A stretch of DNA of 64,000 nucleotides from an uncultured Atopobium sp. (GCA_947252455.1 CAMXVQ010000002.1:18549-82548); one strand, 5' to 3'; positions 1,851 to 56,716 are shown, counted from the stretch's first letter. The notes: a model not told the origin generated them from the letters alone. Program-made: numbers and translations.

Positions 1851-2540
1851 GTGTGTACAGATAACGCTGCATGGAAATGGAATGTCGAATTTCCTCAACT
1901 AACCTATGATACCTTGAATACTCGATCAGTGAAAAAGCGTGCAAACGTTATTGTTTCTCAATCAAATGGTGCTGAGGTTAAGTTTTCAGTACCGGTAGCA
2001 GTGGGACGTAAACTCTGCACGCTTACTCGTAACGAGCCATGTTCAATCTCTTCAAAGGAAGAGCTTAGAACAAAGATTGATGTGCTTTCTCGTAACATGC
2101 TTCATCAGCTCCTAGAAACGGCTCTCAACAAGCGTGATTATTCATATTATGAACTTAAAGAAAAATTTATTCGTTTGGGGTATTCAAACAGCTTAGTACA
2201 AGAGATTCTCAGTCATGCTCAAGAGGTTGGTTTAATAGATGACCTTCGCTTTTCACGTATTTTTGTTCAACAAAAGCATGCTAGTGGTTGGGGACCAAAG
2301 AAAATTTCGTTGGAACTCAGGCGGCGTGGAATAGATTCTTCGATCATTAATCAAGCATGTGCAGGTTATGGACTAGAAGAAGACGAATTTCAAACTGCAT
2401 TGCGCATCTGTCAGCATAAAGTTTTTCATGCTCGTGATCCATATGCTCAGATAGTCCGTTTTGTTTGTTCAAAAGGATTTTCTCCTTCGGTTGCTTACAA
2501 AGTTGCCAAGCGTTTATTATCTAGTGACAAAGATGAATAA
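1851..2540 (+). CDS. recX: RecA regulator RecX
   Basis: 229-aa ORF directly downstream of recA. The C-terminal helical repeats (LRRRGID, KGFSPSVAYKV) are typical of RecX. The exact start is uncertain. Confidence 0.75.
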   Translation: MCTDNAAWKWNVEFPQLTYDTLNTRSVKKRANVIVSQSNGAEVKFSVPVAVGRKLCTLTRNEPCSISSKEELRTKIDVLSRNMLHQLLETALNKRDYSYYELKEKFIRLGYSNSLVQEILSHAQEVGLIDDLRFSRIFVQQKHASGWGPKKISLELRRRGIDSSIINQACAGYGLEEDEFQTALRICQHKVFHARDPYAQIVRFVCSKGFSPSVAYKVAKRLLSSDKDE

Positions 2541-2641
2541 GAATACGTGTGCATGTGTTTTACCATGTAGTATCGAAGCATTGGTATAGTAACGTTGGTT
2601 TGTACTACATGAGTGTAATTAGAGGTAATCTGCAATGTTTC

Positions 2642-2697
2642 AAGGGGCCTCATTGAACTGCATATTCAATTTGACCCCTGTCCATTTTCTTTTTTAC
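2642..2697 (+). terminator. candidate rho-independent terminator after recA-recX
   Basis: AAGGGG (2642-2647) pairs with CCCCT (2675-2679). It is followed by the T-rich tract ccattttctttttt (2682-2695). The stem is short. Confidence 0.3.
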
Positions 2698-2731
2698 GCT
2701 TTGTATCTTAGTTCAATACTTGTGTTACCAG

Positions 2732-3712
2732 CTACACATTGCATTTTGTCTCAAAGGTTAAGCTTGAAGAAGCCAAGCGACATGCATCCTTCATGGCATG
2801 TACAAATCTTCCAACATGTTGTGGTGCATCTTGATGATATTGTCCAACCATTTTTACGATGGCAGATCCTACAATTACACCATCGGCTAATCGAGCCATG
2901 CGTTCTGCCGCCTTAGGGGTAGAAATGCCAAATCCAATAGCACAGGGAATGTTTGTATTTTTTCTAATAAGCGCAATCATGTCGGCTAAGTTGTTTGAAA
3001 ATTCACTCCGTTCGCCTGTTACGCCCAAGCTTGAAACCACGTAGATAAAGCCTTGTGCACCTTGAGCAATGCGTTCAATTCTGTCTTTTGAAGTCGGAGC
3101 AACCAAAGAGATGAGCGCAATCCCGTATTTTTTGCAATCAGGCAAAAATTCATTGCGTTCCTCAAAAGGCACATCGGGCAGAATGATTCCCGCAATTCCT
3201 GTTTCTTTGCAGCGCTGCATAAATCGCGTGGAGCCGTAGGAAAAAACAACATTAGCATAGGTCATAAATACAAGTGGTACATGGACAAGTGGTGCCTGCG
3301 TAGGCGCGTTTTTATCTGGGCATGTAGTAAGAGATTGTACAAAGTCAAATATATCGTCGGTGGTAATACCTGTTTTCAGTGCGCGTATATTCGCTTCTTG
3401 AATAGTGGGACCTTCTGCACAGGGATCAGAAAAAGGAATACCTAATTCAATAAGATCGGCTCCTTGCGCCTGCATTTCAAGGATAAGAGCCCGTGTTGTA
3501 TCAAGATCGGGATCTCCGCAGGTAATAAAGGGAATAAACGCTTTTTCTTTTCTCTTTGTATCAGATGTATTTGAATAGGTTACACAATCGTTTAATTGTC
3601 CGCTCGCATCGGTACCTGTCGTTTCAATTTCACCTTCAGTATGAGATTGATTTTTTGCACTCTGTGTGTCCGTAAAACCAAACGCTTCGGCAATTCTAGA
3701 CATATTATTCAT
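2732..3712 (-). CDS. trpA: tryptophan synthase alpha subunit
   Basis: The conserved core [13 protein letters not shown]...[11 protein letters not shown] is present. I set the start at the ATG at 3712 ([11 protein letters not shown]), which has an AGGAGAG Shine-Dalgarno. It overlaps the trpB stop at 3705-3707. Confidence 0.85.
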
Positions 3713-9606: not shown

Positions 9607-9736
9607 AAAATTCCTCCTCCACAGTCTATACTCTATGGGGGAGTAAAACAGGTTGAGCACAACCCGAAGCACGCGCATTTACGTTGCGCTGACAACAAAC
9701 GCTCATCCACAGATTGAAGTGGCAAGCAAATTTGTT

Positions 9737-10015
9737 AAAAAAAACGCCCCCAACAGAAACTACGTTCTATCAAGGACGAACTTCTTAGCTTTTATGCACA
9801 TATGCAAAAAGATAAGAATCCGCGGTGCCACCTTGAATTCGCGCATGCGCTTAAGCTCTGCGCGCACTTAAAGAATACCATCATATTCCCGACAACTAAC
9901 GCGTGTCTGACGTCACAGAATACTCTAGAGCCAAGGTGTAAAACCAAGGATTCTATTTGACTGCGCCCTCAGCGGTCCATTTGACAATTTGTTTCCAGCC
10001 TGATTCTCAGCATCG
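9737..10015 (-). promoter_or_regulatory. T-box riboswitch leader (tRNA-Trp responsive) upstream of trpE
   Basis: The minus strand reads AATTCAAGGTGGCACCGCGG (plus-strand 9818-9840), which matches the T-box consensus AAnnnGGGTGGnACCGCGG. About 150 nt upstream there is a stem-I-like helix, CTGCG...CGCAG. Its K-turn-like UGAGA/UGA elements flank a loop reading AAAUGGAC. That is a UGG Trp codon followed by a purine (plus-strand CCA at 9977-9979). A U8 tract lies at 9737-9744, but I could not draw a clean terminator helix. Confidence 0.55.
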
Positions 10016-10289
10016 CAGACTCTCTGTATGGGCTTAAATTGCCGTTATCTCCGCATCAACGGTTTAGGTGCTATTCGATTGAATCATATTAAAGACCCTG
10101 TTAGTGTTTTCGTCAACTAGTTTTCCAAATGGTAACAATTGCGCTTTTGTATACTTACATATACACGTTAAGTAATGGTTTGGTAGTACCGTTTACAGCG
10201 TCAGCAGAACTAAGCTAAACCTCTACCGAGCAAAAACCTACATGTGAATGGATTTTTTTCGCGTTTTTCCTACAACACCACTCTTATAT

Positions 10290-10318
10290 TGACATCACCT
10301 TCATATAACCGTACTATT
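10290..10318 (+). promoter_or_regulatory. candidate rny promoter (-35 TTGACA, 17-nt spacer, -10 TACTAT)
   Basis: Hexamers read directly from the sequence. They would give a roughly 200-nt 5' UTR. Confidence 0.25.
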
Positions 10319-10515
10319 AGATAGTCTTTTGAGATATTTCTCGCAGGTCACTATGACTGCGCTAACTTTGTTCGATTTGTTTTGATTATTAAATGCTGCC
10401 TTTTAACTGCAGTTTAATTATGTTTCGAATACTTGCTCTAGGCGAGATATGCCTCAAATGGCGGGCTCCGTTACGGATTCCTGAACTCATATTTATTTTC
10501 ATTTGAGGAGTTTAT

Positions 10516-31939: not shown

Positions 31940-32014
31940 GGGCGATTGGCTCAGGGGTAGAGCACTTCCTTCACACGGAAGGGGTCGTGGGTTCAAATCC
32001 CGCATCGCCCACCA
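31940..32014 (+). tRNA. tRNA-Val (anticodon CAC)
   Basis: I folded the cloverleaf by hand. The acceptor GGGCGAT/ATCGCCC pairs perfectly. D stem GCTC/GAGC, anticodon stem CTTCC/GGAAG with loop TTCACAC, T arm GTGGG TTCAAAT CCCGC, and an encoded CCA. Confidence 0.9.
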
Positions 32015-32187
32015 CTTTTTTCCTTCCTTTTTACCCAGGTAAACATACTTATTTACATGATAGCAAAATAACACCCGACCCATTTTTGTCCCATGATATT
32101 AAGGAATGACTACGTAAAGATATAGGAAAACTTACTTTTATTGCAAAATAATTGCATAAATTACGTGGTTCAAAACCAGTAGAAAAA

Positions 32188-32226
32188 ATGGGTTTCGCTT
32201 ATACCAGCAAAACCCATTATTTTGTT
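32188..32226. terminator. bidirectional rho-independent terminator
   Basis: A perfect 8-bp stem, ATGGGTTT...AAACCCAT. It is flanked by AGAAAAAA upstream and TATTTTGTT downstream on the plus strand, about 90 nt downstream of the MIP gene stop on the minus strand. Confidence 0.5.
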
Positions 32227-32308
32227 CTCTGCAAGATGAAACACTTGTACAAATATCTCGGCATGAGAGGAGCTTTGAACAGTCTTTTCATCAGCATGAA
32301 ATCAGTAT

Positions 32309-33028
32309 TTAGAGCAACATTAAAAGACTGTGATATAAAAACGCACCAAGCGTTGCACCCATAAGTGGTCCAACTACAGGGATCCATGAATATTCCCAAT
32401 GTGAAGTACCTTTGTTGGGAATGGGCAGAAGTGAATGCATAATACGAGGCCCTAAATCGCGCGCTGGATTCATAGCATATCCTGTTGTTGAACCCAAACA
32501 CAATCCAATAACTAGAATGAGAATACCTATGACAATTGGTCCAAGTCCATGTTCAAGACGATTAGGCCCAAGACACAAAACACCAATAATAAGCACCGAT
32601 GTAGATAATACCTCGCCAAATAAATTAGAAGGCGTGTGACGAATAGCAGGCGCTGTACAAAAACATGAAAGAATAGCATCTTGATTTGTGGTTTGCTTCC
32701 AGTGAGGATAAAAATGGAGCCATACGCATACATTGGCGCACATAGCACCCAGAAATTGTGCCAAGATAAAAGAAGGAACCTGCTCCCATGAAATCTCCCC
32801 TACGTATGCAAGTGCAACACTAACAGCAGGATTTAAATGTGCTGGTCCAAAAATTCCTGCAACATATACCGCAAGTGTAATTGCCATCGCCCAACCAGTA
32901 GCTGTTTGCATCCAGCCAGTGCCATATGATTTTGTTTGCTTTAATTCAACAGAACAAATAACGCCCTCTCCTAAAAGCATCATAATAAATGTTCCTAAAA
33001 ACTCACCTATCATAGGTAGCGTAATCAC
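32309..33028 (-). CDS. MIP-family channel (aquaporin/glycerol facilitator)
   Basis: 239 aa with six TM helices and two NPA boxes (HLNPAVS, AMNPARD). Confidence 0.85.
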   Translation of the reverse strand: MITLPMIGEFLGTFIMMLLGEGVICSVELKQTKSYGTGWMQTATGWAMAITLAVYVAGIFGPAHLNPAVSVALAYVGEISWEQVPSFILAQFLGAMCANVCVWLHFYPHWKQTTNQDAILSCFCTAPAIRHTPSNLFGEVLSTSVLIIGVLCLGPNRLEHGLGPIVIGILILVIGLCLGSTTGYAMNPARDLGPRIMHSLLPIPNKGTSHWEYSWIPVVGPLMGATLGAFLYHSLLMLL

Positions 33029-33207
33029 GAATAATCGCCTTCTTTCCTAAGGGGAAACGATATGTCCCACATGTTTGACAAACGGTAAAATTATACGTGA
33101 AAAAACTTGGTTTTGACCGAAATGTATGCAAAATAGAACCGCTTCACTAGGTATACAAAAAATTTGGTATAGAACTAGGTAATGTAGGCTGTAAATTCCA
33201 AAATAAT

Positions 33208-33282
33208 GGTGGAGAATACGGGGTTCGAACCCGTGACCTCATGGCTGCCAGCCATGCGCTCTCCCAACTGAGCTAATTCCCC
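33208..33282 (-). tRNA. tRNA-Ala (anticodon GGC)
   Basis: The reverse complement folds as GGGGAAT TA GCTC AGTTGGGA GAGC G CATGG CTGGCAG CCATG AGGTC ACGGG TTCGAAC CCCGT ATTCTCC A CCA. It has the G3:U70 Ala identity pair. Confidence 0.9.
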
Positions 33283-33479
33283 ATTACGGTCATCAAGACC
33301 TATTAATAATATCAAAACTTATAATTTCGTCAACGCAGAATTTTTATGCTTCAAAAATTATGCTATTTCTTCACGAGCGCCAACTCTGCAAACAGATCGT
33401 ATGATCGACAGAGGCAACGCACCAAAAAGCCTATAAACGCACTATAACAAGCACTCACCAAAAGCTGGTGCTAAGAAAA

Positions 33480-33504
33480 AACCCAACAGGCTTTCTGTTG
33501 GGTT
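33480..33504 (-). terminator. rho-independent terminator 3' of tRNA-Met
   Basis: A perfect 10-bp stem, AACCCAACAG / CTGTTGGGTT, followed on the minus strand by TTTTTTCTT. Confidence 0.55.
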
Positions 33505-33515
33505 ATATGTCTTAT

Positions 33516-33591
33516 GGTGGGCCCAGTAGGACTTGAACCTACAACCAAAGGATTATGAGTCCTCTGCGCTAACCGATTGCGCTATAGGCCC
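33516..33591 (-). tRNA. tRNA with CAT anticodon (elongator Met or lysidine-modified Ile2)
   Basis: The reverse complement is GGGCCTATAGCGCAATCGGTTAGCGCAGAGGACTCATAATCCTTTGGTTGTAGGTTCAAGTCCTACTGGGCCCACCA. It has a G1:C72 pair and no three-GC anticodon stem, so it is not an initiator. Confidence 0.85.
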
Positions 33592-45239: not shown

Positions 45240-46268
45240 TTACGCGCGAGGATTTGCGCGACGCGCAGCGTCTTTTAATGCATTAACAGAAACATGTGTA
45301 TATATCTGTGTAGTTGCCAGGCTTGCATGTCCTAAAAGCTCCTGCACACTGCGTAAATCTGCACCATGTGACAGCAACTCGGTTGCAAACGAATGACGCA
45401 TCGTATGAGGAGTTGCTATTTCTTGAAGATGACTTAAGCGCATGTAATGTTCAAAAACGTATCTTAGAGCTTGATCACTCATGGCCTTACCACGTGTTGA
45501 AATAAAAACGCGTTGATTAGTTTGAGCTTGCGCTTGATTTTTTTGTTTAGATAACAAAACTGGCCGCGCGTTTGTCAGATACATATGCAAAATACGGGCA
45601 CATTCGGGATATATTGGCACAATGCGCTCTTTTGAGCCTTTACCAAATAGCCTTACCTGCAGTGTATCAAAGGATATGTCAGAAATACACAAGTGAGCCG
45701 CTTCAGATATACGACAACCTGTTGCATAAAGGAGTTCCAAAAGCGCGCGATCTCGTATACCGCATGCCGTATCTTCATGACAGGTGGTAAGTAACTTTTC
45801 AATGGAAGATTCACTTAAAACATGAGGTAATGTCTTGGGAATCTTTGGGCTTGAAAGCGCTGACGCACAATCTTTTTCGGTCAGTCCTTTTCGAACAAGC
45901 CATTTATACCACGCTCGAATAGCAGATAAATGCCTATTAATGGTACGAGAGGCATAGTGAGCTGCATATAATTGTGCCAAATATGACCGTAGCTGCTTAT
46001 GCGAAATATCTAAGAGATCATAGGAGTTTTTTATAAGCCAACGCACATACGCTTTAAGATCTGTTTCATATGCACGAGTTGTGTTTGGCGATAAATTTTG
46101 AGTATTCATAAGGTGCTGAATAAACGATTCCATAAGCTGCTGCACATATGCGGAATATGAATCATCATCAGGTTTTATGCCACAAGCAGGTATAACTTGT
46201 GAACAATTTATCTCTGTATGTTCGCTCGTTTTAGAAGATATATCATCACTCATAAAACACTCACCCAC
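45240..46268 (-). CDS. xerC: tyrosine site-specific recombinase, XerC/XerD type
   Basis: The R...HxxR...Y catalytic residues (HTMRHSFAT, LGHASLATTQIYTHV) and an N-terminal core-binding domain. The housekeeping context and synteny with rpsB argue for Xer rather than a phage integrase. Confidence 0.8.
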   Translation of the reverse strand: MGECFMSDDISSKTSEHTEINCSQVIPACGIKPDDDSYSAYVQQLMESFIQHLMNTQNLSPNTTRAYETDLKAYVRWLIKNSYDLLDISHKQLRSYLAQLYAAHYASRTINRHLSAIRAWYKWLVRKGLTEKDCASALSSPKIPKTLPHVLSESSIEKLLTTCHEDTACGIRDRALLELLYATGCRISEAAHLCISDISFDTLQVRLFGKGSKERIVPIYPECARILHMYLTNARPVLLSKQKNQAQAQTNQRVFISTRGKAMSDQALRYVFEHYMRLSHLQEIATPHTMRHSFATELLSHGADLRSVQELLGHASLATTQIYTHVSVNALKDAARRANPRA

Positions 46269-47765: not shown

Positions 47766-48785
47766 CTACAATCTATCTTCGCTCTTTTTCCCATAGTATA
47801 GATAAGCTTGAGACGTTGGAGAAAAGCGCCCGTCAATTAAGCGTTTAACTAAACCTTGTGCTTCAAAATCGCCTAAGGTAGAAAGAATCGTTATAATCTT
47901 TTCGTCGAGCTGTTGCGCTAAATCATCTGCACGCATAGGATTTGCAAATAATGCAGACATAATTTTACCTAAATGCGGCTTGAGAGATTCACAAGTTAAA
48001 CGTAGCGAATTGAAATCCAAACTAATGCGCTCCTCAAGATCTTTTTCTGAGGTGATAATCGCCGCTCCGTTGGCAATAAGTGCATTCGTACCATTTGAAA
48101 GTGGAGAAAAAATTGAACCTGGACAAGCATACAACATACGATTTAATTGCACGGCAGTTTCGGCAGTGCTCATCGTGCCCGACTTATGATTTGCTTCACA
48201 GATAATAAGCACACGTGATAGAGCAGCAATGATCTTATTTCTTTTTGGAAATGCATAGCGCTTTGGTGAAGACCCCCACGTTTCAAGGGCAATAACACAA
48301 CCTCTACCATCCTTTGCTTCTTCAAAAATGTCTTTTGACGATGATGGATATATCTTATCGGCTCCACATCCCGAAACGATACAAATACTCCCCTTTGCAT
48401 CAAGCGCAGCACGTAAGGCAGCGTAATCACAGCCTTTAGCACCACCTGAAACTACTGTTAAACCGCACTCCGCAGATATACGTCCTGCAAGTTGTGCTAA
48501 TGATTTTCCATAAGGCGTGGCATCGCGAGCGCCAATAATAGATATGCACGGCTTTTGGAGGACATCTGGATTACCTATTCCATACAAACGCTGCGGAGGA
48601 TGCTCAAGGTCGTGTAGTGCGTAAGGATAGTACGAATCTGCGTCCGTAAGCTCCCAACGTGCAGCAGCACTCGGAGCATGTGTATGAGACAAAGGCACGT
48701 GACCCTGAGGCATGCAAGCTTGTTGAATTACTTGTGACTCTATGACGGCAGATAAGTTATTGTCTATGGTTATAGATCTTCTCAT
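47766..48785 (-). CDS. dprA: DNA-processing protein DprA
   Basis: Rossmann-like DprA core (GGAKGCD...RNKIIAALS). Confidence 0.8.
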   Translation of the reverse strand: MRRSITIDNNLSAVIESQVIQQACMPQGHVPLSHTHAPSAAARWELTDADSYYPYALHDLEHPPQRLYGIGNPDVLQKPCISIIGARDATPYGKSLAQLAGRISAECGLTVVSGGAKGCDYAALRAALDAKGSICIVSGCGADKIYPSSSKDIFEEAKDGRGCVIALETWGSSPKRYAFPKRNKIIAALSRVLIICEANHKSGTMSTAETAVQLNRMLYACPGSIFSPLSNGTNALIANGAAIITSEKDLEERISLDFNSLRLTCESLKPHLGKIMSALFANPMRADDLAQQLDEKIITILSTLGDFEAQGLVKRLIDGRFSPTSQAYLYYGKKSEDRL

Positions 48786-50347
48786 AAACTCCCTTTTCTA
48801 TTCCTTAGCATACAAGCTTCCAACATGTCCTCAACTTCAACGCGTTCATGTTCTGCCAAGTCTGCTATCGTTCGAGCAACATGTACAATACGCGACAAAC
48901 CCCTACCCCCAAGTCCTGTTCTCAATGCTATTTGGTTAAGTTTGGATTTGGCTTCAGGCGACAGAGCTTCACACGCAATACCTTTATTTTTTGATTGGTT
49001 GCCACCTGATTTTTGATCCATAACAGACGAAGCACGCGAACATACACCAGTTAAAGAGTCTTTTAGTTTCTCTTCACGTTGAGCTCTAAACGCACGAGCT
49101 TTTTCTACCATTGCTTGCATTTGGGCAGATGATAGACCTTGTACTCCATTAAGTATTTTTTGCGGTGAGGGACGTTGTATATCAATACACATATCGATAC
49201 GATCAACTAAAGGTCCACTCAACTTAGATTGATACTTTAAAATTTTTGCCTCGGTGCATACGCATTCATGATCACTATCACCTAAATATCCGCAGGGGCA
49301 AGGATTTGCAGCAGCAATAAACATAAACTTACCAGGAAAAACATACACTCCTTCTGCGCGAATAAGACGCACCTCACCCTCCTCGAACGGTTGGCGTAAG
49401 GTTTGTAACACATTCGAGGCAAATTCTGGTAATTCATCAAGAAAAAGTACACCCGTATGAGCAAGCGATATTTCTCCTGGTAAAACTGGCCTTCCCCCAC
49501 CTATAAGCCCTGCAGTTGATATAGAATGATGCGGCGCTCTAAAAGGTGGAATTCCTTGAGAAAGCAAGTCTAAAGGAAGTCCTGCTACCGAGTGAATAAG
49601 CAAAGCTTCATCTTTCTGTGCCACACTTAAAGGTGGAAGAATCGAAGGAATACGTTGCGCAAGCATCGTTTTACCTGCACCTGGAGGTCCTATCATCAGC
49701 AATCCATGATTGCCTGCTGCGGCTATCACACATGCACGTTTTGCAGCTTCTTGGTCTATAACGTCTATAAAATCATAGGTATGAACAGATTGGCGTAGGC
49801 GCTTTTTAAGAACCACCGCACTTGTATCGCTACATTTTCGCATAAGCCAAGGAATACCATTCATAAATACGCTTAGACGCTGACAGTAAAGCGTATGCTT
49901 GGTATGAATATCGTTTACACTTAAAGCTGAACAAACCACCATTTTATGTAACGAGCGCGCTAACTTATAATATGCCATATACCCTCGTATAGGACACACG
50001 CTTCCATCCAAGGCAAGCTCACCTATAAATAGACACTTTTCAATATCGGCTAAAGGCATCGAGTGCGTTAGATAGAGCAGTGCCACCGCAATTGGTAAAT
50101 CAAATCCAGCTCCCGTTTTTCTTATCTCACCAGGTGAAAGATTGATAGTAATATGTTTTCTGGGTAAATTAACTCCTATGCTTTTAAGCGCACAGCGCAC
50201 GCGCGAGCGAGATTCTAAAACCGATATATCAGGATTTCCCACAAGCGTTATCCCAGGAATACCACTTGAAGTAGAAACTTCAACTTTAACCGGAATTGCT
50301 TCTATTCCTCGCAGCATGGCCGTGTGAATGGTAACAGCCTCACTCAT
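48782..50347 (-). CDS. comM: Mg-chelatase-like AAA+ ATPase YifB/ComM
   Basis: Lon-like N-domain, AAA+ Walker A (GPPGAGKT), Walker B (LFLDE), and a C-terminal ChlI domain. The start is the ATG at 50347. Confidence 0.85.
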   Translation of the reverse strand: MSEAVTIHTAMLRGIEAIPVKVEVSTSSGIPGITLVGNPDISVLESRSRVRCALKSIGVNLPRKHITINLSPGEIRKTGAGFDLPIAVALLYLTHSMPLADIEKCLFIGELALDGSVCPIRGYMAYYKLARSLHKMVVCSALSVNDIHTKHTLYCQRLSVFMNGIPWLMRKCSDTSAVVLKKRLRQSVHTYDFIDVIDQEAAKRACVIAAAGNHGLLMIGPPGAGKTMLAQRIPSILPPLSVAQKDEALLIHSVAGLPLDLLSQGIPPFRAPHHSISTAGLIGGGRPVLPGEISLAHTGVLFLDELPEFASNVLQTLRQPFEEGEVRLIRAEGVYVFPGKFMFIAAANPCPCGYLGDSDHECVCTEAKILKYQSKLSGPLVDRIDMCIDIQRPSPQKILNGVQGLSSAQMQAMVEKARAFRAQREEKLKDSLTGVCSRASSVMDQKSGGNQSKNKGIACEALSPEAKSKLNQIALRTGLGGRGLSRIVHVARTIADLAEHERVEVEDMLEACMLRNRKGSL

Positions 50348-50870
50348 AAGGCCCGTCCCATTCAAATGCAGACTGTATATGTCTTAGCTGAGCATGCGAA
50401 TCATCTAAAATTGCCAACGCAATAACATCAAAACGTATGTTTTCGCACATAGGATAAGCAGTGTTATAACTACGAGCCAAGGCAATATAGCGCGATTGTT
50501 TTTGTTTATCAACAGCAATCTCGGGAAAGAGCTCCCCTGATTTGTTCTGCAGCCGTGTTTTTACTTCAACAAAAACGGTCTCATCACCTTTTGAGGCAAT
50601 GATATCAACTTCACCATCTGCGCATTTCCAATTACGATCCAAAATTTCAAAATCCTGCCGTTCTAAAAAACAACAGGCAAGATTTTCACCCAACGTGCCA
50701 AGTTCCTTGCTATTTAAAGTGTTAACTGCGGACTTGCGCGGAGTATCAACCGAATCGTTGGTTTTTTCTTTCGTCTGTCTCTTATCGCGTTTTGTAGTTT
50801 TTTTCTTGTGTGGTGCACAAGACTCGATAGGATCTGCAGAAGCTATCTCTGACCCAAAATGTTCCTTCAT
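50340..50870 (-). CDS. yraN: YraN-family (UPF0102) endonuclease-fold protein with a Lys-rich N-terminal extension
   Basis: The core LGTLGENLACCFLERQDFEILDRNWK...DGEVDIIASKGDE...FVEVK matches YraN. A roughly 55-aa basic N-terminal tail is present. Confidence 0.65.
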   Translation of the reverse strand: MKEHFGSEIASADPIESCAPHKKKTTKRDKRQTKEKTNDSVDTPRKSAVNTLNSKELGTLGENLACCFLERQDFEILDRNWKCADGEVDIIASKGDETVFVEVKTRLQNKSGELFPEIAVDKQKQSRYIALARSYNTAYPMCENIRFDVIALAILDDSHAQLRHIQSAFEWDGPYE

Positions 50871-51032
50871 GCTGCCTTCTTTCCTGAAGCTTTACCTAAA
50901 GGACATTTTGAACCTACAAACATGCACAAAACTTGGCGCTAACTTGCAAAAAAGCCAAAATAAAACCTGCAAGTTTCCAAAATATTCAGATACTTACAGG
51001 CTTAAAAATTTCCTCAATGTATGTATATACAA

Positions 51033-52031
51033 TTATCTGGTAATAAACTTATGGTATGCGCTTTCATCAACAACAACATCCAGCTCGCCAATCCATAAAA
51101 ACGGCTCATGGGATTTGCAAAAGCCATACTTAAAGAAGTAAAGCCCATCATTAACATCTAAAGAGTACACAGCTCCCATGTTAAAATATTTTTTACCAAG
51201 CTCACGACCCCATTTTATAAGCTCCCAAATAGTGAGATATCCAGGACTAACTTTTCCCTTCATGGTTGTTGTGGCTCCATAAACATACCAGAGCGTATCC
51301 TTATAAGGAAAACCAAGCATACTAGATATAGGTTGACCTTCATATTCAGAAGTACAAATTCGAATATCAGGAAAAGCTTCTAAGAATCTATCAAAATACT
51401 CTCTTGGACGATAGGTAATGCCATGTCGGTGAGCCATAATTTCGGTAAGATGATAAAAGGTATCAAGATCCTCTTTTGATCTACTCCAACGCGAGGTAAC
51501 ACCTGCTTTTATAGAAGATCTAATATGTCTTCGAGTCATGGTACTAAAACTTGCAAGCAAGTCATCAGTAGATTTGCCTTCAAGATCAAGCATCATTTCA
51601 CAGTGAGGATTAGAAAACGAATGAGGGCTTACTCCATCGCTTCTAAACGTAAAACCAGCATCACGATACTTTTTTACTAATGCCTGATCGTTCTCTACAC
51701 AGGGATCGAGTCTGAGTAAGAAGGCATCGTACTTTTTAAAAAGTAGCCGCGCTTCATCAATAAGTCTTTTAGTAGTTTCGATATCATAAAAATCACAAAC
51801 AGGACCTCGTGGAGCATAAAGGAACATTTTGTCATCCGATGCCTTAATACCAAGGACAGACATACCCGCACAAATTTTTCCATCCTTCTCAAGATAAACA
51901 AATTCATTAATCCAATTGCTTTTAACTTTAGACCAGTTCATATACTGCATAACATGGCCATACGGCGAATGTTTAACAAATTCATCTTATTCTTGAACTT
52001 TTGCTGCGTCATTTTTATCAAGTATCGGCAT
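51033..52031 (-). pseudogene. FemX/FemAB-family peptidoglycan interpeptide aminoacyltransferase gene interrupted by an in-frame TAA at codon 15
   Basis: Minus-strand translation from the ATG at 52031 reads MPILDKNDAAKVQE-TAA-DEFVKHSPYGHVMQYMNWSKVKSNW... in a single frame. Both the 14-codon N-terminal piece and the 305-aa ORF from the ATG at 51950 match FemX. The stop codon is at 51987-51989. Confidence 0.55.
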
Positions 52032-52293
52032 CGATTCTCCTTCTTGCCTAATACACAATTATGCATATAAACCGCAAACAATAACATCAAATACAAATTG
52101 ATTGCATCAATTCCTTGTCCCTAACTAAATCTAGCATAGTCTAGTTCATCAAATAAGTAAGGTCAAGAAATCATAAATACCATAACAAGTTTACGGCTTG
52201 TAACAAAAATTCTCCTCATTATTTTGCATTAATATGATCAATCAAATTGTGTCAAGTCAAATGATTGAAAGAAATTAAAGCATGCCATACAGG

Positions 52294-53100
52294 TTATACA
52301 AAATGTTTACAAAATGATTTGCGATGTACAGGGCTTAAACCATAGGTTTTAATCGCATCAATATGTGCTTTGGAACCATAACCTTTATTTTCAGCAAAAT
52401 GATATTGAGGATAGCGCGTATCCAAATCTTGCATAAGACGATCACGAGCAACTTTTGCAACTATTGATGCGGCGGCGATAGAGGCAATACGGCTATCACC
52501 TTTTATCAGCGTTTTCTCTTTGGGATGTGCGTGAATAGGATTGCCATCAATCAACACACAATCTGGTTCAACACCAGTTTGCAAAATAGCACACTTCATG
52601 GTTTCACGTAGGCATGAAACAATACCAAATCTGTCTATATCCTCAGGACTTGTAAATGCAATTCCAACCGCACGAGCATGCGCGCGAATTTGTGTATCTA
52701 GGCGCTCACGTTCCAAAGAGGTAAGTTTCTTTGAATCGTTAAGACCCCAAATGTGAGGCTCTTGGGGAAGAATCACCGCAGCTACTGCCAAAGGTCCGGC
52801 AAGAGGACCGCGTCCAACTTCGTCAACACCTATGATGGTGCCCACACCGCCTAGCTCCTCTTGAAGCTCATACATATCATTAACACGAGCGCGCTCCTTG
52901 CACGCAAGGTCATAGCGCTTGACGGCTCTTGTAACTGCTGCTTGTACGCTCTTGCGCTCGTCATGTGCATAGTGCTCAATTACCGCATTGAGCTCCTCAA
53001 AAGGCGTCACGCGCAGAACGGTAATAATATCTGAACATGTGGGTGTCTTTGTTTTACTCACACCCTGTTCAATTTGTGTGTGAGATGTTACATTATCCAT
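52294..53100 (-). CDS. rnhB: ribonuclease HII with an approximately 80-aa N-terminal extension
   Basis: The catalytic core begins at GVDEVGRGPLAGP. The C-terminal region is conserved. Confidence 0.85.
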   Translation of the reverse strand: MDNVTSHTQIEQGVSKTKTPTCSDIITVLRVTPFEELNAVIEHYAHDERKSVQAAVTRAVKRYDLACKERARVNDMYELQEELGGVGTIIGVDEVGRGPLAGPLAVAAVILPQEPHIWGLNDSKKLTSLERERLDTQIRAHARAVGIAFTSPEDIDRFGIVSCLRETMKCAILQTGVEPDCVLIDGNPIHAHPKEKTLIKGDSRIASIAAASIVAKVARDRLMQDLDTRYPQYHFAENKGYGSKAHIDAIKTYGLSPVHRKSFCKHFV

Positions 53101-53221
53101 GATAAGCTTTCATGACGTGCCTGGTAAACAGTGCATAAGAGACAATTTTTCACTTGTCCCAAAATAAAATAAAGGCGATAACAAAAAAGCCACCCGAAGG
53201 TGACTTTTCATGCGGCTTAGC

Positions 53222-53563
53222 TTAGCGTTTCTCGCGAATGCGTGCTGCTTTTCCAACACGATCACGTAGATAGTAAAGCTTAGAGCGATTAACGTCACCA
53301 TGACGTACAACCTCAAGCTTTGCAATCTTAGGTGAGTGAAGCGGGAACGTACGCTCAACACCTACACCAAAGCTCATTTTACGAACAGTAAATGTTTCAC
53401 GCGCGCCTGCACCGCTCATACGGATAACGTCGCCTTGAAACACCTGCTCACGCTCACGTTCACCCTCTTTAATACGATAGTGAACTTTAACATTGTCGCC
53501 AGGAATTACGTGTGGCAAATCTTCACGTATTTGCTGACGCTCAAGTGCTTGAATGTAATCCAT
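53222..53563 (-). CDS. rplS: 50S ribosomal protein L19
   Basis: Start at the ATG at 53563 ([13 protein letters not shown]). The full-length alignment to L19 ends ...[17 protein letters not shown]. Confidence 0.93.
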
Positions 53564-53950
53564 TACACATCCATTCTCTAGAGGTGCCGACACATGTGAA
53601 CGACACATAGCTATACATACGAATTTAAATATTACCGCACAATTTAGGTTCAAAGGCGATAAAACTAAAAATATATGAAATCCTTCGCAATATACACATG
53701 GAACCGCGCGTAACTACGACGGATGCACACGTAAAATGCGTGCATCCTTAGACATTACAACACAATGAAACACGTTTAGCTGCGTGGTTGTTTCTTTAAA
53801 ACACAAGGAGACGCATGTGCACAAGACGAAAAACGGTACAACCTTCATACAAAGATTGTACCGAATTTACGCGGCGTCGGCATGTGCGCATAAAATCAAA
53901 AGAACTGTGATCTCCTACGAAAGCTCACATACCGTGATTACGCACAGCAA

Positions 53951-56716
53951 CTATTTAACCTGTGCAGGTCCGCCATTAGAATTGATCTTAGCCTGCGCTC
54001 CTGCCAAACGAGCAATAGGAACACGATAAGGCGAGCAGGATACATAATCTAATCCAAGGTCATAATACATCTGGATAGATTGAGGATCTCCTCCGGTCTC
54101 ACCACACACACCACACACGATAGTTGGATTAGCTTGGTGACCACCCTTAACAGCTACATCAACTAATTTTGCAACACCTGAGTCAAGCGTTTCAAATGGG
54201 TTACTCTTCAAGATCTTTTTATTAAGATACTGAGGAATAAATGCAGACTCAACGTCATCACGCGAGAAACCAAATACGGTTTGAGTAAGGTCGTTGGTAC
54301 CAAAGCTAAAGAAGTCTGCATATTTACCAATCTCATCTGCCGTTACAGCTGCACGAGGAAGCTCAATCATGCATCCAACAGGAATGTGGAGTTCAACACC
54401 TTCTGACTCGGCAACAGCTTCGACAACATCTTCAATTTGGTTGCGTACAAGCTTAAGCTCTTCAACGGTGGAAATAAGCGGAACCATGATTTCAGGACAT
54501 GGATTAAATCCTTCTTTTTTAAGACGTGCAGCAGCGCCTGCAATAGCACGAACTTGCATGTCGTTAAGCTCGGGATACACAATACCCAAACGGCAACCGC
54601 GAAGTCCCAGCATAGGGTTAGCTTCTTGGAACGAATCAAGACGAGCAAGGTGTGCACGCATAGCTTTAAGAGTTGTGTCGTGCTCACCGCGTGCTTCAGC
54701 ATGTGCAAGCTGTACAGCCACTGCGCGTGGATCATCCAAGAACTCGTGCAGAGGTGGGTCAAGCAAACGAACGATAACATTTCTGCCGTCCATAGCTTTA
54801 AACATACCAACAAAGTCCTCGGTTTGAACACGAAGGAGCTGACCTAAAGCTTGTTGCTTTGCGCCATCGGACTCAGCCAAAATAAACGACTGAATAATTT
54901 GTTTACGCTCGCCCAAGAACATGTGCTCAGTACGATCCAAACCAATACCATCGGCTCCAAAATCAACAGAAAGCTGTGCGTCAGCTGGATTATCAGCATT
55001 GGTACGAACACCAAAGATGCGCCCACGAGATGCATCACGGCGGACATCATCTGCCCATGTAAGAATGGTCTCAAGGTCTCCTGTAAGCTCAGGACGAGTT
55101 AGAGGAACCTCTCCGAGAATAATGTCGCCTGTTGTTCCGTTAATGGAAATGACATCGCCCTCATGAAGAACCACGCCAGTACCACTAATTTCTACTTGTT
55201 TGGCTTTTGCATCAATACGAAGTGCTTCAGCACCACAGACACAAGGAGCACCCATACCACGTGCAATTACAGCTGCATGCGAAGTTTTTCCACCATGAGA
55301 AGTTAAAATACCTTCTGCCGCAACCATACCACGAAGGTCATCTGGAGTAGTTTCCCAACGTACAAGAATGCAAGGCTTCTCGATATTGTGATAGTGAACT
55401 GCAGCGTCAGACGAGAATACAACAGCACCTACTGCAGCACCAGGTGAGGCATTCATACCTTTAGCAATGACGTCAACTTTTGCTTTTGGATCAAATTGTG
55501 GGTGAAGCAGTTGGTCAAGTTGCTCGGGCGCAACACGCATAATTGCTTGCTCGCGAGTAATACGTCCCTCATCGACCATTTGAATGGCAACACGAAGCGC
55601 AGAAAGTGCAGTACGTTTACCAACACGAGTTTGCAGCATCCAAAGTTTGCCTTGTTCAATGGTAAACTCGATATCCATCATGTCGGCATAGTGATCTTCC
55701 AAGATCTCAAAGACATGGAACAGTTCTTTACCAGCTTCTTTAAGTGCAGGAACTTTTACCAAATCGGCAATGGGCTCGGTATTACGAATACCTGCAACAA
55801 CATCTTCACCTTGTGCGTTAATAAGGAAGTCACCATAGCGCTCGTTGGTACCATCGGCAGGATTACGCGTAAAAGCAACACCAGTTGCAGATGTTTCGCC
55901 TTTATTACCAAAGACCATAACCTGCACGTTAACAGCAGTACCAAGATTATCATCGATCTTATTTTGCTTACGATAAATGCATGCACGCTCATTCATCCAG
56001 CTTCCAAATACAGCTTGCTCGGCAAGACGAAGTTGAAGATATGGATCTTGTGGGAAGGAAGCTTTACCGTCGGGAGCAACCTCAGGGTGAGCTTGGGAAT
56101 CAACGTTTTTAGCAAAGATTTTCTTAAATGTCTGCGTAAGATCTTTAAGATCTTCTGCATTTAGTTCGGTATCTAAGCGAACGCCTTTTTCTTCCTTTTT
56201 CTCATTGATAGCCTCTTCAAACAAGTCACCATCAATACCCATAACAACGTTAGAGAACATCTGAACAAAACGACGATAAGAATCCCATGCAAAACGTTCA
56301 TTATTGGTTTGTTTAATTAAACCTTGAACAGAAACGTCGTTAAGACCAAGGTTTAAAACAGTATCCATCATACCAGGCATCGAAAAAGGAGCACCTGAAC
56401 GTACTGAGACAAGCAGTGGGTCTTGTGGATCGCCAAGTTTTTTGCCCATTCGACGTTCAAGATCTTTACGAGCGACATCAATCTCGTCCAAAACACCTGC
56501 TGGCCACGTATTGTTATGCGTAGCATACGCAACACATGTTTGGCAGGTAATAGAAAATCCGGGAGGAACAGGAAGACCAATATTTGCCATCTCGGCAAGA
56601 TTGGCACCTTTACCACCGGTTATCCATTTTGCTTCATCAACGGAAGCACCGGCAACTTCGGTAACGTTATTACCGTTTTCATCATTACCAAAACGGTATA
56701 CGTGCTTTTCAGCCAT
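53951..56716 (-). CDS. ppdK: pyruvate, phosphate dikinase
   Basis: Start at the ATG at 56716 (MAEKHVYRF). PEP-utilising enzyme motifs are present, including the catalytic His in GGKTSHAAVIARG and a C-terminal TIM-barrel domain. Confidence 0.92.
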   Translation of the reverse strand: MAEKHVYRFGNDENGNNVTEVAGASVDEAKWITGGKGANLAEMANIGLPVPPGFSITCQTCVAYATHNNTWPAGVLDEIDVARKDLERRMGKKLGDPQDPLLVSVRSGAPFSMPGMMDTVLNLGLNDVSVQGLIKQTNNERFAWDSYRRFVQMFSNVVMGIDGDLFEEAINEKKEEKGVRLDTELNAEDLKDLTQTFKKIFAKNVDSQAHPEVAPDGKASFPQDPYLQLRLAEQAVFGSWMNERACIYRKQNKIDDNLGTAVNVQVMVFGNKGETSATGVAFTRNPADGTNERYGDFLINAQGEDVVAGIRNTEPIADLVKVPALKEAGKELFHVFEILEDHYADMMDIEFTIEQGKLWMLQTRVGKRTALSALRVAIQMVDEGRITREQAIMRVAPEQLDQLLHPQFDPKAKVDVIAKGMNASPGAAVGAVVFSSDAAVHYHNIEKPCILVRWETTPDDLRGMVAAEGILTSHGGKTSHAAVIARGMGAPCVCGAEALRIDAKAKQVEISGTGVVLHEGDVISINGTTGDIILGEVPLTRPELTGDLETILTWADDVRRDASRGRIFGVRTNADNPADAQLSVDFGADGIGLDRTEHMFLGERKQIIQSFILAESDGAKQQALGQLLRVQTEDFVGMFKAMDGRNVIVRLLDPPLHEFLDDPRAVAVQLAHAEARGEHDTTLKAMRAHLARLDSFQEANPMLGLRGCRLGIVYPELNDMQVRAIAGAAARLKKEGFNPCPEIMVPLISTVEELKLVRNQIEDVVEAVAESEGVELHIPVGCMIELPRAAVTADEIGKYADFFSFGTNDLTQTVFGFSRDDVESAFIPQYLNKKILKSNPFETLDSGVAKLVDVAVKGGHQANPTIVCGVCGETGGDPQSIQMYYDLGLDYVSCSPYRVPIARLAGAQAKINSNGGPAQVK

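Follow-up and report, generated by a model that had tools for sequence, protein, structure and literature searches.

Premature stop codon and recurrent inactivation of a FemX-type gene on a one-gene island in a lineage related to Fannyhessea vaginae

The 64,000-nt stretch of DNA analyzed here (the window; CAMXVQ010000002.1:18549-82548 of assembly GCA_947252455.1, uncultured Atopobium sp.) originates from a vaginal metagenome assembly and carries on its minus strand a reading frame of 332 codons for a FemX-type peptidoglycan branch aminoacyltransferase (femX), extending from ATG 52031-52029 to its natural TAA stop codon at 51035-51033. The frame is interrupted at codon 15 by a premature TAA (51989-51987): the codons from ATG 52031 onward translate into MPILDKNDAAKVQE, followed by the stop and then, in the same frame, by DEFVKHSPYGHVMQYMNW... 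This direct reading of the minus strand agrees with the stop coordinates and the split frame given in a preliminary description of the stretch. A tblastn search covered residues 1-332 straight across the stop, and the Shine-Dalgarno motif AAGGAG upstream of the ATG is unchanged across all 16 sequences of the femX alignment described below. The 59 tiled open reading frames (ORFs) of the window terminate with TAA (36), TAG (15) or TGA (8), in line with the normal stop codon usage that the preliminary description had noted for the other genes, and no other split gene was apparent among them. The features of the locus are compiled in Table 1.

Table 1. Features at the femX locus of the window and femX lesions in related loci (lesion positions counted in nt from the femX ATG)
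Feature	Position	Strand	Remarks
femX pseudogene, frame of a FemX-type aminoacyl-tRNA-dependent peptidoglycan branch transferase	51033..52031	-	332 codons, interrupted at codon 15
Premature TAA, codon 15	51987..51989	-	derived from TAC (Tyr15)
Shine-Dalgarno AAGGAG	52037..52042	-	5 nt upstream of ATG 52031-52029
Residual 305-aa ORF from Met28 (ATG 51950)	51033..51950	-	longest open piece (ORF list)
Lineage-specific one-gene island, ~1.35 kb, femX between rnhB and yraN	50953..52299	-	replaces ~76 nt of intergenic DNA
Terminator-like hairpin, then U-rich run, downstream of femX	50954..51003	-	stem 51003-50963
Three sigma-70-like promoter candidates upstream of femX	52138..52260	-	weak
rnhB, RNase HII of 268 aa, intact upstream neighbor, core-genome context	52294..53100	-	Pfam RNase_HII
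yraN-like UPF0102 gene, 176 aa, intact downstream neighbor	50340..50870	-	Pfam UPF0102; syntenic in all loci
femX lesion, -1 (GGGAAAA to GGGAAA)	nt 777		L002-L005; ERR11779539, SRR26038906, SRR35270011, SRR35270007
femX lesion, +1 A (A6 to A7)	nt 356		L012, L013, L030; three ERR117796xx runs
femX lesion, +1 A	nt 401		L006, L007; SAMN25037444, ERZ14212716
femX lesion, -1	nt 128		L008-L010; three SRR248898xx runs
femX lesion, -1, outside any repeat	nt 194		L014; one contig

In the residual ORF, the N-terminal 27 residues are gone, helix alpha1 among them. The preliminary description had anticipated such a loss for a protein reinitiated at ATG 51950; the loss itself holds, although it amounts to 27 rather than about 28 residues. 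The 305-aa product (P0126, exact match) has been called in public NCBI and Logan assemblies. Inspection of the sequence upstream of Met28 and of the in-frame Met31 revealed no Shine-Dalgarno motif at either codon. Two nucleotides past the premature TAA, an out-of-frame ATG opens a 15-codon ORF (51939-51985, minus strand) whose TGA overlaps the ATG of Met31 as ATGA, a geometry that could permit coupled reinitiation.

The origin of the stop was inferred from a comparison with 15 syntenic loci (gene order rplS - rnhB - femX - yraN - comM), fetched from other contigs of vaginal metagenome runs that belong to several projects. The femX alignment comprised the window, locus L001 and 14 other loci, with the fifteenth, L030, compared separately. 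Each of the 14 other aligned loci has TAC at codon 15, and Tyr15 is encoded by L030 as well. TAA is confined to the window and L001; the latter is an ENA scaffold that shares its sample (SAMN25037615) with the window and is 100% identical to window positions 48033-54950, i.e., over 6,918 nt. The comparison with orthologous loci that the preliminary description had advised thus found the stop absent from 15 other loci, all with Tyr at codon 15. The stop is the derived state, having arisen by a single transversion at 51987, which reads C-to-A on the minus strand and G-to-T on the plus strand. Lesions aside, the window allele equals the allele of L002-L005 over all 999 nt; the latter has kept TAC and carries a 1-nt deletion at nt 777 instead. 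The identity of the two alleles over the entire gene indicates that the mutation in the window is very recent.

Five further independent 1-nt frameshifts were found in femX among the related loci, and four of the five recur across runs (Table 1). The nt 777 deletion is carried by six contigs in all, the four runs shown for it representing at least three run series; as this frameshift and that at nt 401 recur across accession series, they are not assembly noise. Of the six lesion types, the deletion in L014 is the least certain; this contig might include assembly errors and has a further 1-nt deletion between femX and yraN (position ~2520, nt 1054 from the femX ATG). A candidate seventh lesion, P0128, was rejected, as it proved identical to the +1 insertion at nt 356 of L012. 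Intact alleles are represented by L011, L015, P0001, P0124, P0125, P0130 and P0132, and rnhB, yraN and comM are full length in every locus wherever they are fully contained. Natural populations thus harbor at least six independent inactivating lesions in femX, which is a decaying accessory gene. Between alleles with dS values of 0.035-0.12, dN/dS amounts to 0.055-0.147; purifying selection acted on femX as the lineage diversified, and the breaks are recent. Within the near-identical haplogroup of the window (window, L005, L013 and L007), we counted four loss-of-function lesions, two synonymous and two nonsynonymous changes. This pattern fits a complete, recent relaxation of constraint and, given the small numbers and biased sampling, may at most hint at an excess of knock-outs.

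For profile and homology searches of the 332-aa product, Tyr was placed at codon 15. The product matched PF02388 (FemAB) with E = 4.6e-36 and 125 bits, versus a cut-off of 24, and likewise PF13480 (Acetyltransf_6). Its residues 1-329 aligned with residues 1-333 of Weissella viridescens FemX (3gkr; E = 3e-56, 36% identity), MPVLNLNDPQAVERYEEF being paired with MPILDKNDAAKVQE*DEF such that the stop falls on Tyr15. The Pfam FemAB match and the end-to-end alignment with the W. viridescens enzyme support the FemX-type branch aminoacyltransferase identity proposed in the preliminary description, and also its notion that the stop resides inside a conserved N-terminal domain, since homology spans the stop, which is therefore no chance ORF boundary. 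Among 38 homologues, Tyr15 is at least 90% conserved, and all 38 begin at a conserved MP(I/V)L N-terminus with invariant M1 and P2. An intact orthologue of 332 aa, P0001, shares 98% identity with the window frame; its AlphaFold model reached a pLDDT of 94 and a pTM of 0.89. In this model, residues 9-21 form the first helix (pLDDT 91-96), which includes Tyr15, and the chain shows the Fem fold, with its two GNAT-like domains in tandem. Foldseek superimposed the P0001 model on W. viridescens FemX (1xe4, 1ne9) with TM scores of 0.90-0.91 and an rmsd of 2.1-2.3 A. The protein is of the short FemX form, collinear with the solved enzyme from residue 1 and without a coiled-coil insertion. In the Weissella enzyme, FemX(Wv), Lys36 and Arg211 hold UDP-MurNAc-pentapeptide (PMC2655667); the equivalent residues K37 and R208 are invariant in alignments of 17 and 38 sequences and present in the window frame, the residual part of which retains the invariant residues K37, D109, R208, Y251 and K301. 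Membership of femX in the Fem (FemABX) family is certain.

Specificity is a different matter. With the NCBIfam alanyltransferase equivalog NF047883, P0001 scored 272.9 bits and the 305-aa remnant 226 bits; the cut-off of 500 was not reached, and femX can therefore not be filed as an alanine-specific enzyme. Neither the amino acid transferred by the femX product nor its acceptor, which might be a nucleotide precursor or lipid II, is established from sequence. Of the label 'FemX-type lipid II' aminoacyltransferase in the preliminary description, the first part can be kept and the second is not established, as the nearest solved homologue uses UDP-MurNAc-pentapeptide rather than lipid II. Two homologues, P0005 and P0006, which share 72% and 69% identity with the window protein, reside in tight aspS-femX-glyA arrangements with gaps of 1-30 nt (loci L025-L029, e.g., L025 2212-6269), glyA coding for serine hydroxymethyltransferase (SHMT); the cluster of P0005 includes Clostridiales MAG (metagenome-assembled genome) members. 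The neighboring SHMT gene may suggest that the substrate is Gly or Ser. No second Fem gene was detected by tblastn within the window.

RNase HII, EF-Ts, S2, ProRS, MurJ, the ClC exchanger and RNase Y of the window fall into clusters of at least 90% identity that are named Fannyhessea (Atopobium) vaginae, and the DNA flanking femX is 89-95% identical to the F. vaginae assembly GCA_019400135.1 (locus L021) in blastn comparisons. The window thus belongs to a sister lineage of F. vaginae in a broad sense. A Gardnerella host, which a G+C content of ~41% and the best FemX matches might suggest, is ruled out by these seven housekeeping-protein clusters.

A blastn comparison of L021 with the window delimits the femX island: homology stops at 52300 and picks up again at 50952. 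In four typical F. vaginae loci (L019-L022, including the NCBI assembly), yraN follows 145 nt after rnhB and femX is lacking. This presence/absence polymorphism at a core locus, combined with closest homologues in another taxon, characterizes femX as a probable horizontally acquired island. Signatures of mobility in the form of an integrase, flanking repeats or a tRNA target were not found at the island: its junctions have neither direct nor inverted repeats, and its borders no recombinase, the nearest one (45240-46268) being a Xer-type core gene 5 kb away. As to expression signals, the RNA hairpin downstream of femX has a predicted folding energy of -22.2 kcal/mol (z = -3.94 versus shuffled sequences); a consensus terminator scan found no terminator there, probably because it admits only simple loops of 3-8 nt. 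The promoter candidates upstream of femX are not above chance (3 seen versus 6.3 expected in shuffled sequences). No T-box or riboswitch was identified upstream of femX with Rfam, and a permissive scan of the locus gave a single match at chance level.

The 90% identity cluster of the femX protein has 20 member sequences, compared with 84-656 in the housekeeping clusters, and the name Fannyhessea does not occur among the 120 best homologues listed. Of the clusters that include named members, the nearest belong to Gardnerella (75, 74, 74 and 67% identity) and to a Clostridiales MAG (72%), and in a neighbor-joining tree the window protein is nested among Gardnerella FemX proteins, which are themselves 70-79% identical to one another. 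A scan with P0001 over one genome per species retrieved only Mobiluncus homologues (42-43% identity) and not the species of the window itself, and a scan of JGI metagenomes yielded only two distant homologues (43-46%). The same femX family is thus found in three distantly related groups, namely Gardnerella, a Clostridiales taxon and one Fannyhessea lineage. Judged from these sequence relationships, the simplest reading is that femX most probably came from a Gardnerella-like donor.

Some further differences between the lineages were noted in the vicinity of the island. RNase HII has 268 aa in all femX-bearing loci with a complete gene and 270 aa in typical F. vaginae (L019-L022), and the rnhB-rplS segment is the most diverged flank (89.4% identity versus ~94% elsewhere). 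Typical F. vaginae loci carry a gene for a 350-aa Acyl_transf_3 protein (PF01757) between ppdK and rplS (L019-L022, ~2276-3328), which is absent from the window (junction 53807-53829) and from L001, L002 and L011, the femX-bearing loci that span this interval. The lineages thus differ reciprocally by two possible cell-envelope-modifying genes within 3 kb. Farther away, an 837-nt stretch (9679-10515) between divergent genes upstream of rny (RNase Y) is devoid of ORFs of at least 80 aa and gave no Rfam match at the gathering threshold; at this threshold, the sole RNA genes found in the window were those for tRNA Val(CAC), Ala(GGC) and Met(CAT) at 31940-33591.

We consider the TAA to be, very probably, a genuine and recent nonsense mutation (TAC to TAA, Tyr15) that renders femX a null allele in this strain. 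Among the alternatives raised in the preliminary description, the real nonsense mutation, and hence a pseudogene, is thereby favored, based on TAC in conspecific alleles and on the five other disruptions of the gene. Translation would start at ATG 52031 and end after 14 residues; any product of reinitiation at Met28 or Met31 would be without helix alpha1 and is expected to be non-functional. By homology, the intact enzyme would use aminoacyl-tRNA as the donor of glycine or an L-amino acid and attach it to the epsilon-amino group of residue 3 of the peptidoglycan precursor, and the transferred residue would then become the first residue of the cross-bridge. With regard to its history, the femX island would have been gained from a Gardnerella-like donor; it was selectively kept during diversification and is now repeatedly lost. 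Judging by its absence from typical F. vaginae and by the survival of broken alleles in multiple samples, femX is evidently not required in this background, and the loss of such a lineage-specific accessory gene should be less consequential than that of a core Fem enzyme.

Several points speak against this interpretation or limit its reach. The TAA allele is documented in one sample only and might, with low probability, reflect a consensus error or mixed alleles in the metagenome, and reinitiation at Met28 or Met31 may occur at a low level. Moreover, the loci were picked via look-ups of truncated proteins, so that the share of broken alleles (~19-20 broken versus ~9 intact contigs among the cluster members listed) is biased upward; the tally of six independent lesion types is unaffected by this selection bias. 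Concerning the proposed donor, the neighbor-joining tree carries no support values, and no donor has been sampled above 75% identity.

An artefact of sequencing, assembly or consensus building, with TAC as the true codon 15 and the A as an error or minor variant, would be compatible with the apparent derivation of the window from a metagenome assembly and with the confinement of the TAA to one biological sample. However, the identity of the same-sample ENA scaffold to the window includes the TAA, the exact 305-aa product is on record from NCBI as well as Logan assemblies, the change replaces a single base outside any repeat and is not a homopolymer indel, and the rest of the window is without split genes. 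Replicated loss-of-function alleles of femX elsewhere also make a broken copy not unexpected, and we regard an artefact as unlikely. If the mutation is real, reinitiation at Met28 or Met31 might still yield a transferase of 302-305 aa that is active, as the intact 305-codon frame past the stop retains the five invariant residues listed above and the ATGA overlap of the 15-codon ORF with Met31 makes translational coupling conceivable. Arguing against this, neither Met codon has a Shine-Dalgarno motif, the lost residues 1-27 hold the helix 9-21 and align with solved FemX from residue 1, and the 38 homologues all start at the conserved MP(I/V)L; in addition, reinitiation could not rescue the other five lesions known from the population, all of which are frameshifts. 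The chance that an active protein is made in this way appears slim.

Phase-variable (contingency) switching via hypermutable repeats, with the window representing the 'off' state, is brought to mind by the predominance of 1-nt indels (five of the six lesions), one of which expands A6 to A7. Yet the lesion in the window is a base substitution, and of the five indels a single one is located in a run of at least 6 nt, the others being found in runs of 1-4 nt or in none. A simple-sequence tract typical of contingency loci is lacking, and such a switch is rejected as very improbable. Programmed recoding, finally, i.e., readthrough or decoding of the TAA to produce full-length FemX, was among the alternatives of the preliminary description and draws its sole support from the perfectly preserved frame on either side of the stop. 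This preservation can be explained by the recent origin of the allele, evident from its identity over 999 nt to another allele when lesions are disregarded. The stop is not conserved, with Tyr in its place in 15 other loci; no RNA structure or Rfam element is found near the stop; and all three stop codons are in normal use in the window, with TAA as the commonest terminator (36 of 59 ORFs), which also disfavors a reassignment of this codon. We therefore dismiss recoding as having next to no probability.

With the nonsense mutation as the preferred explanation, the stop by itself is an ordinary pseudogene mutation for which no special mechanism is needed. The moderately interesting part is the recurrent loss, across strains, of a borrowed Gardnerella-type femX. 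By analogy with deletion of murM in Streptococcus pneumoniae, loss of femX should remove branched muropeptide species. As F. vaginae is a key organism in bacterial vaginosis, it is of relevance that a change in cross-bridge chemistry could, again by analogy, affect susceptibility to beta-lactams and to peptidoglycan hydrolases, including the Gardnerella endolysins in development; endolysins selective for Gardnerella are known (PMC9841237). The naturally occurring intact and broken alleles on near-identical backgrounds offer ready-made comparisons for studying femX function. One may speculate that the loss is adaptive rather than a result of neutral decay, a proposal we advance tentatively and with considerable doubt. 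If true, the lineage would have obtained a Gardnerella-like cross-bridge and its strains would then have been repeatedly selected to switch femX off, for example in order to escape bridge-specific hydrolases, phage endolysins or host recognition. Suggestive in this respect are the four lesions versus two synonymous and two nonsynonymous changes in the haplogroup of the window, the occurrence of two broken alleles in runs of different projects, the existence of the Gardnerella-selective endolysins and the known influence of Fem-type enzymes on hydrolase sensitivity; the argument is weakened by the sampling bias toward broken alleles.

Among known Fem systems, FemX of W. viridescens, a UDP-MurNAc-pentapeptide:L-alanine transferase (1ne9, 3gkr, 4ii9), belongs to the same length class (335 aa versus 332 here). 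Unlike this enzyme, the window copy has a premature stop, and the score of P0001 is under the alanyltransferase equivalog cut-off. The closest sequences, 67-75% identical over the full length, are the Gardnerella FemX proteins, annotated as 'lipid II:glycine glycyltransferase FemX' or 'FemAB family protein'; here, in contrast, the host belongs to the Coriobacteriia (Fannyhessea) and not to the Bifidobacteriaceae, and the gene constitutes a one-gene island that is often inactivated. In the genus description of Fannyhessea, the peptidoglycan type is not stated (PMC6113628), and a literature search found nothing on FemX or the peptidoglycan type of F. vaginae. The Staphylococcus aureus enzymes FemX (FmhB), FemA and FemB are members of the same Pfam family, and their folds match the predicted P0001 structure with TM scores of 0.76-0.84 (6snr, 1lrz), the target-normalized TM score versus the 402-aa S. 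aureus FemX being only 0.71. With ~420 aa, a coiled-coil domain and lipid II and Gly-tRNA as substrates, the staphylococcal enzymes differ from the short-form femX product considered here. Bridges built by the S. aureus Fem proteins are reported to be essential for cell integrity (PMC6428869), and loss of femAB to require compensation (PMC2045680); loss of femX in the present lineage is, in contrast, evidently tolerated in nature.

For a Fem enzyme whose loss is tolerated, MurM (and MurN) of S. pneumoniae provides the best functional parallel. MurM is dispensable for growth, and murM deletion leaves linear muropeptides only (PMC12632259). MurM is, however, distant from the femX product, longer, and acts on lipid II; it is also present species-wide with mosaic alleles rather than on a foreign island, and is not known for repeated knock-outs in nature. 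Another point of reference is ScrI of Streptococcus dysgalactiae, an accessory Fem-like immunity factor that alters bridge composition and sensitivity to a hydrolase (bioRxiv 10.1101/2024.09.27.615381). Unlike a hydrolase-linked immunity factor, femX has no hydrolase gene linked to it within the window; nonetheless, factors of the ScrI type illustrate how selection could act on the acquisition or loss of an accessory femX.

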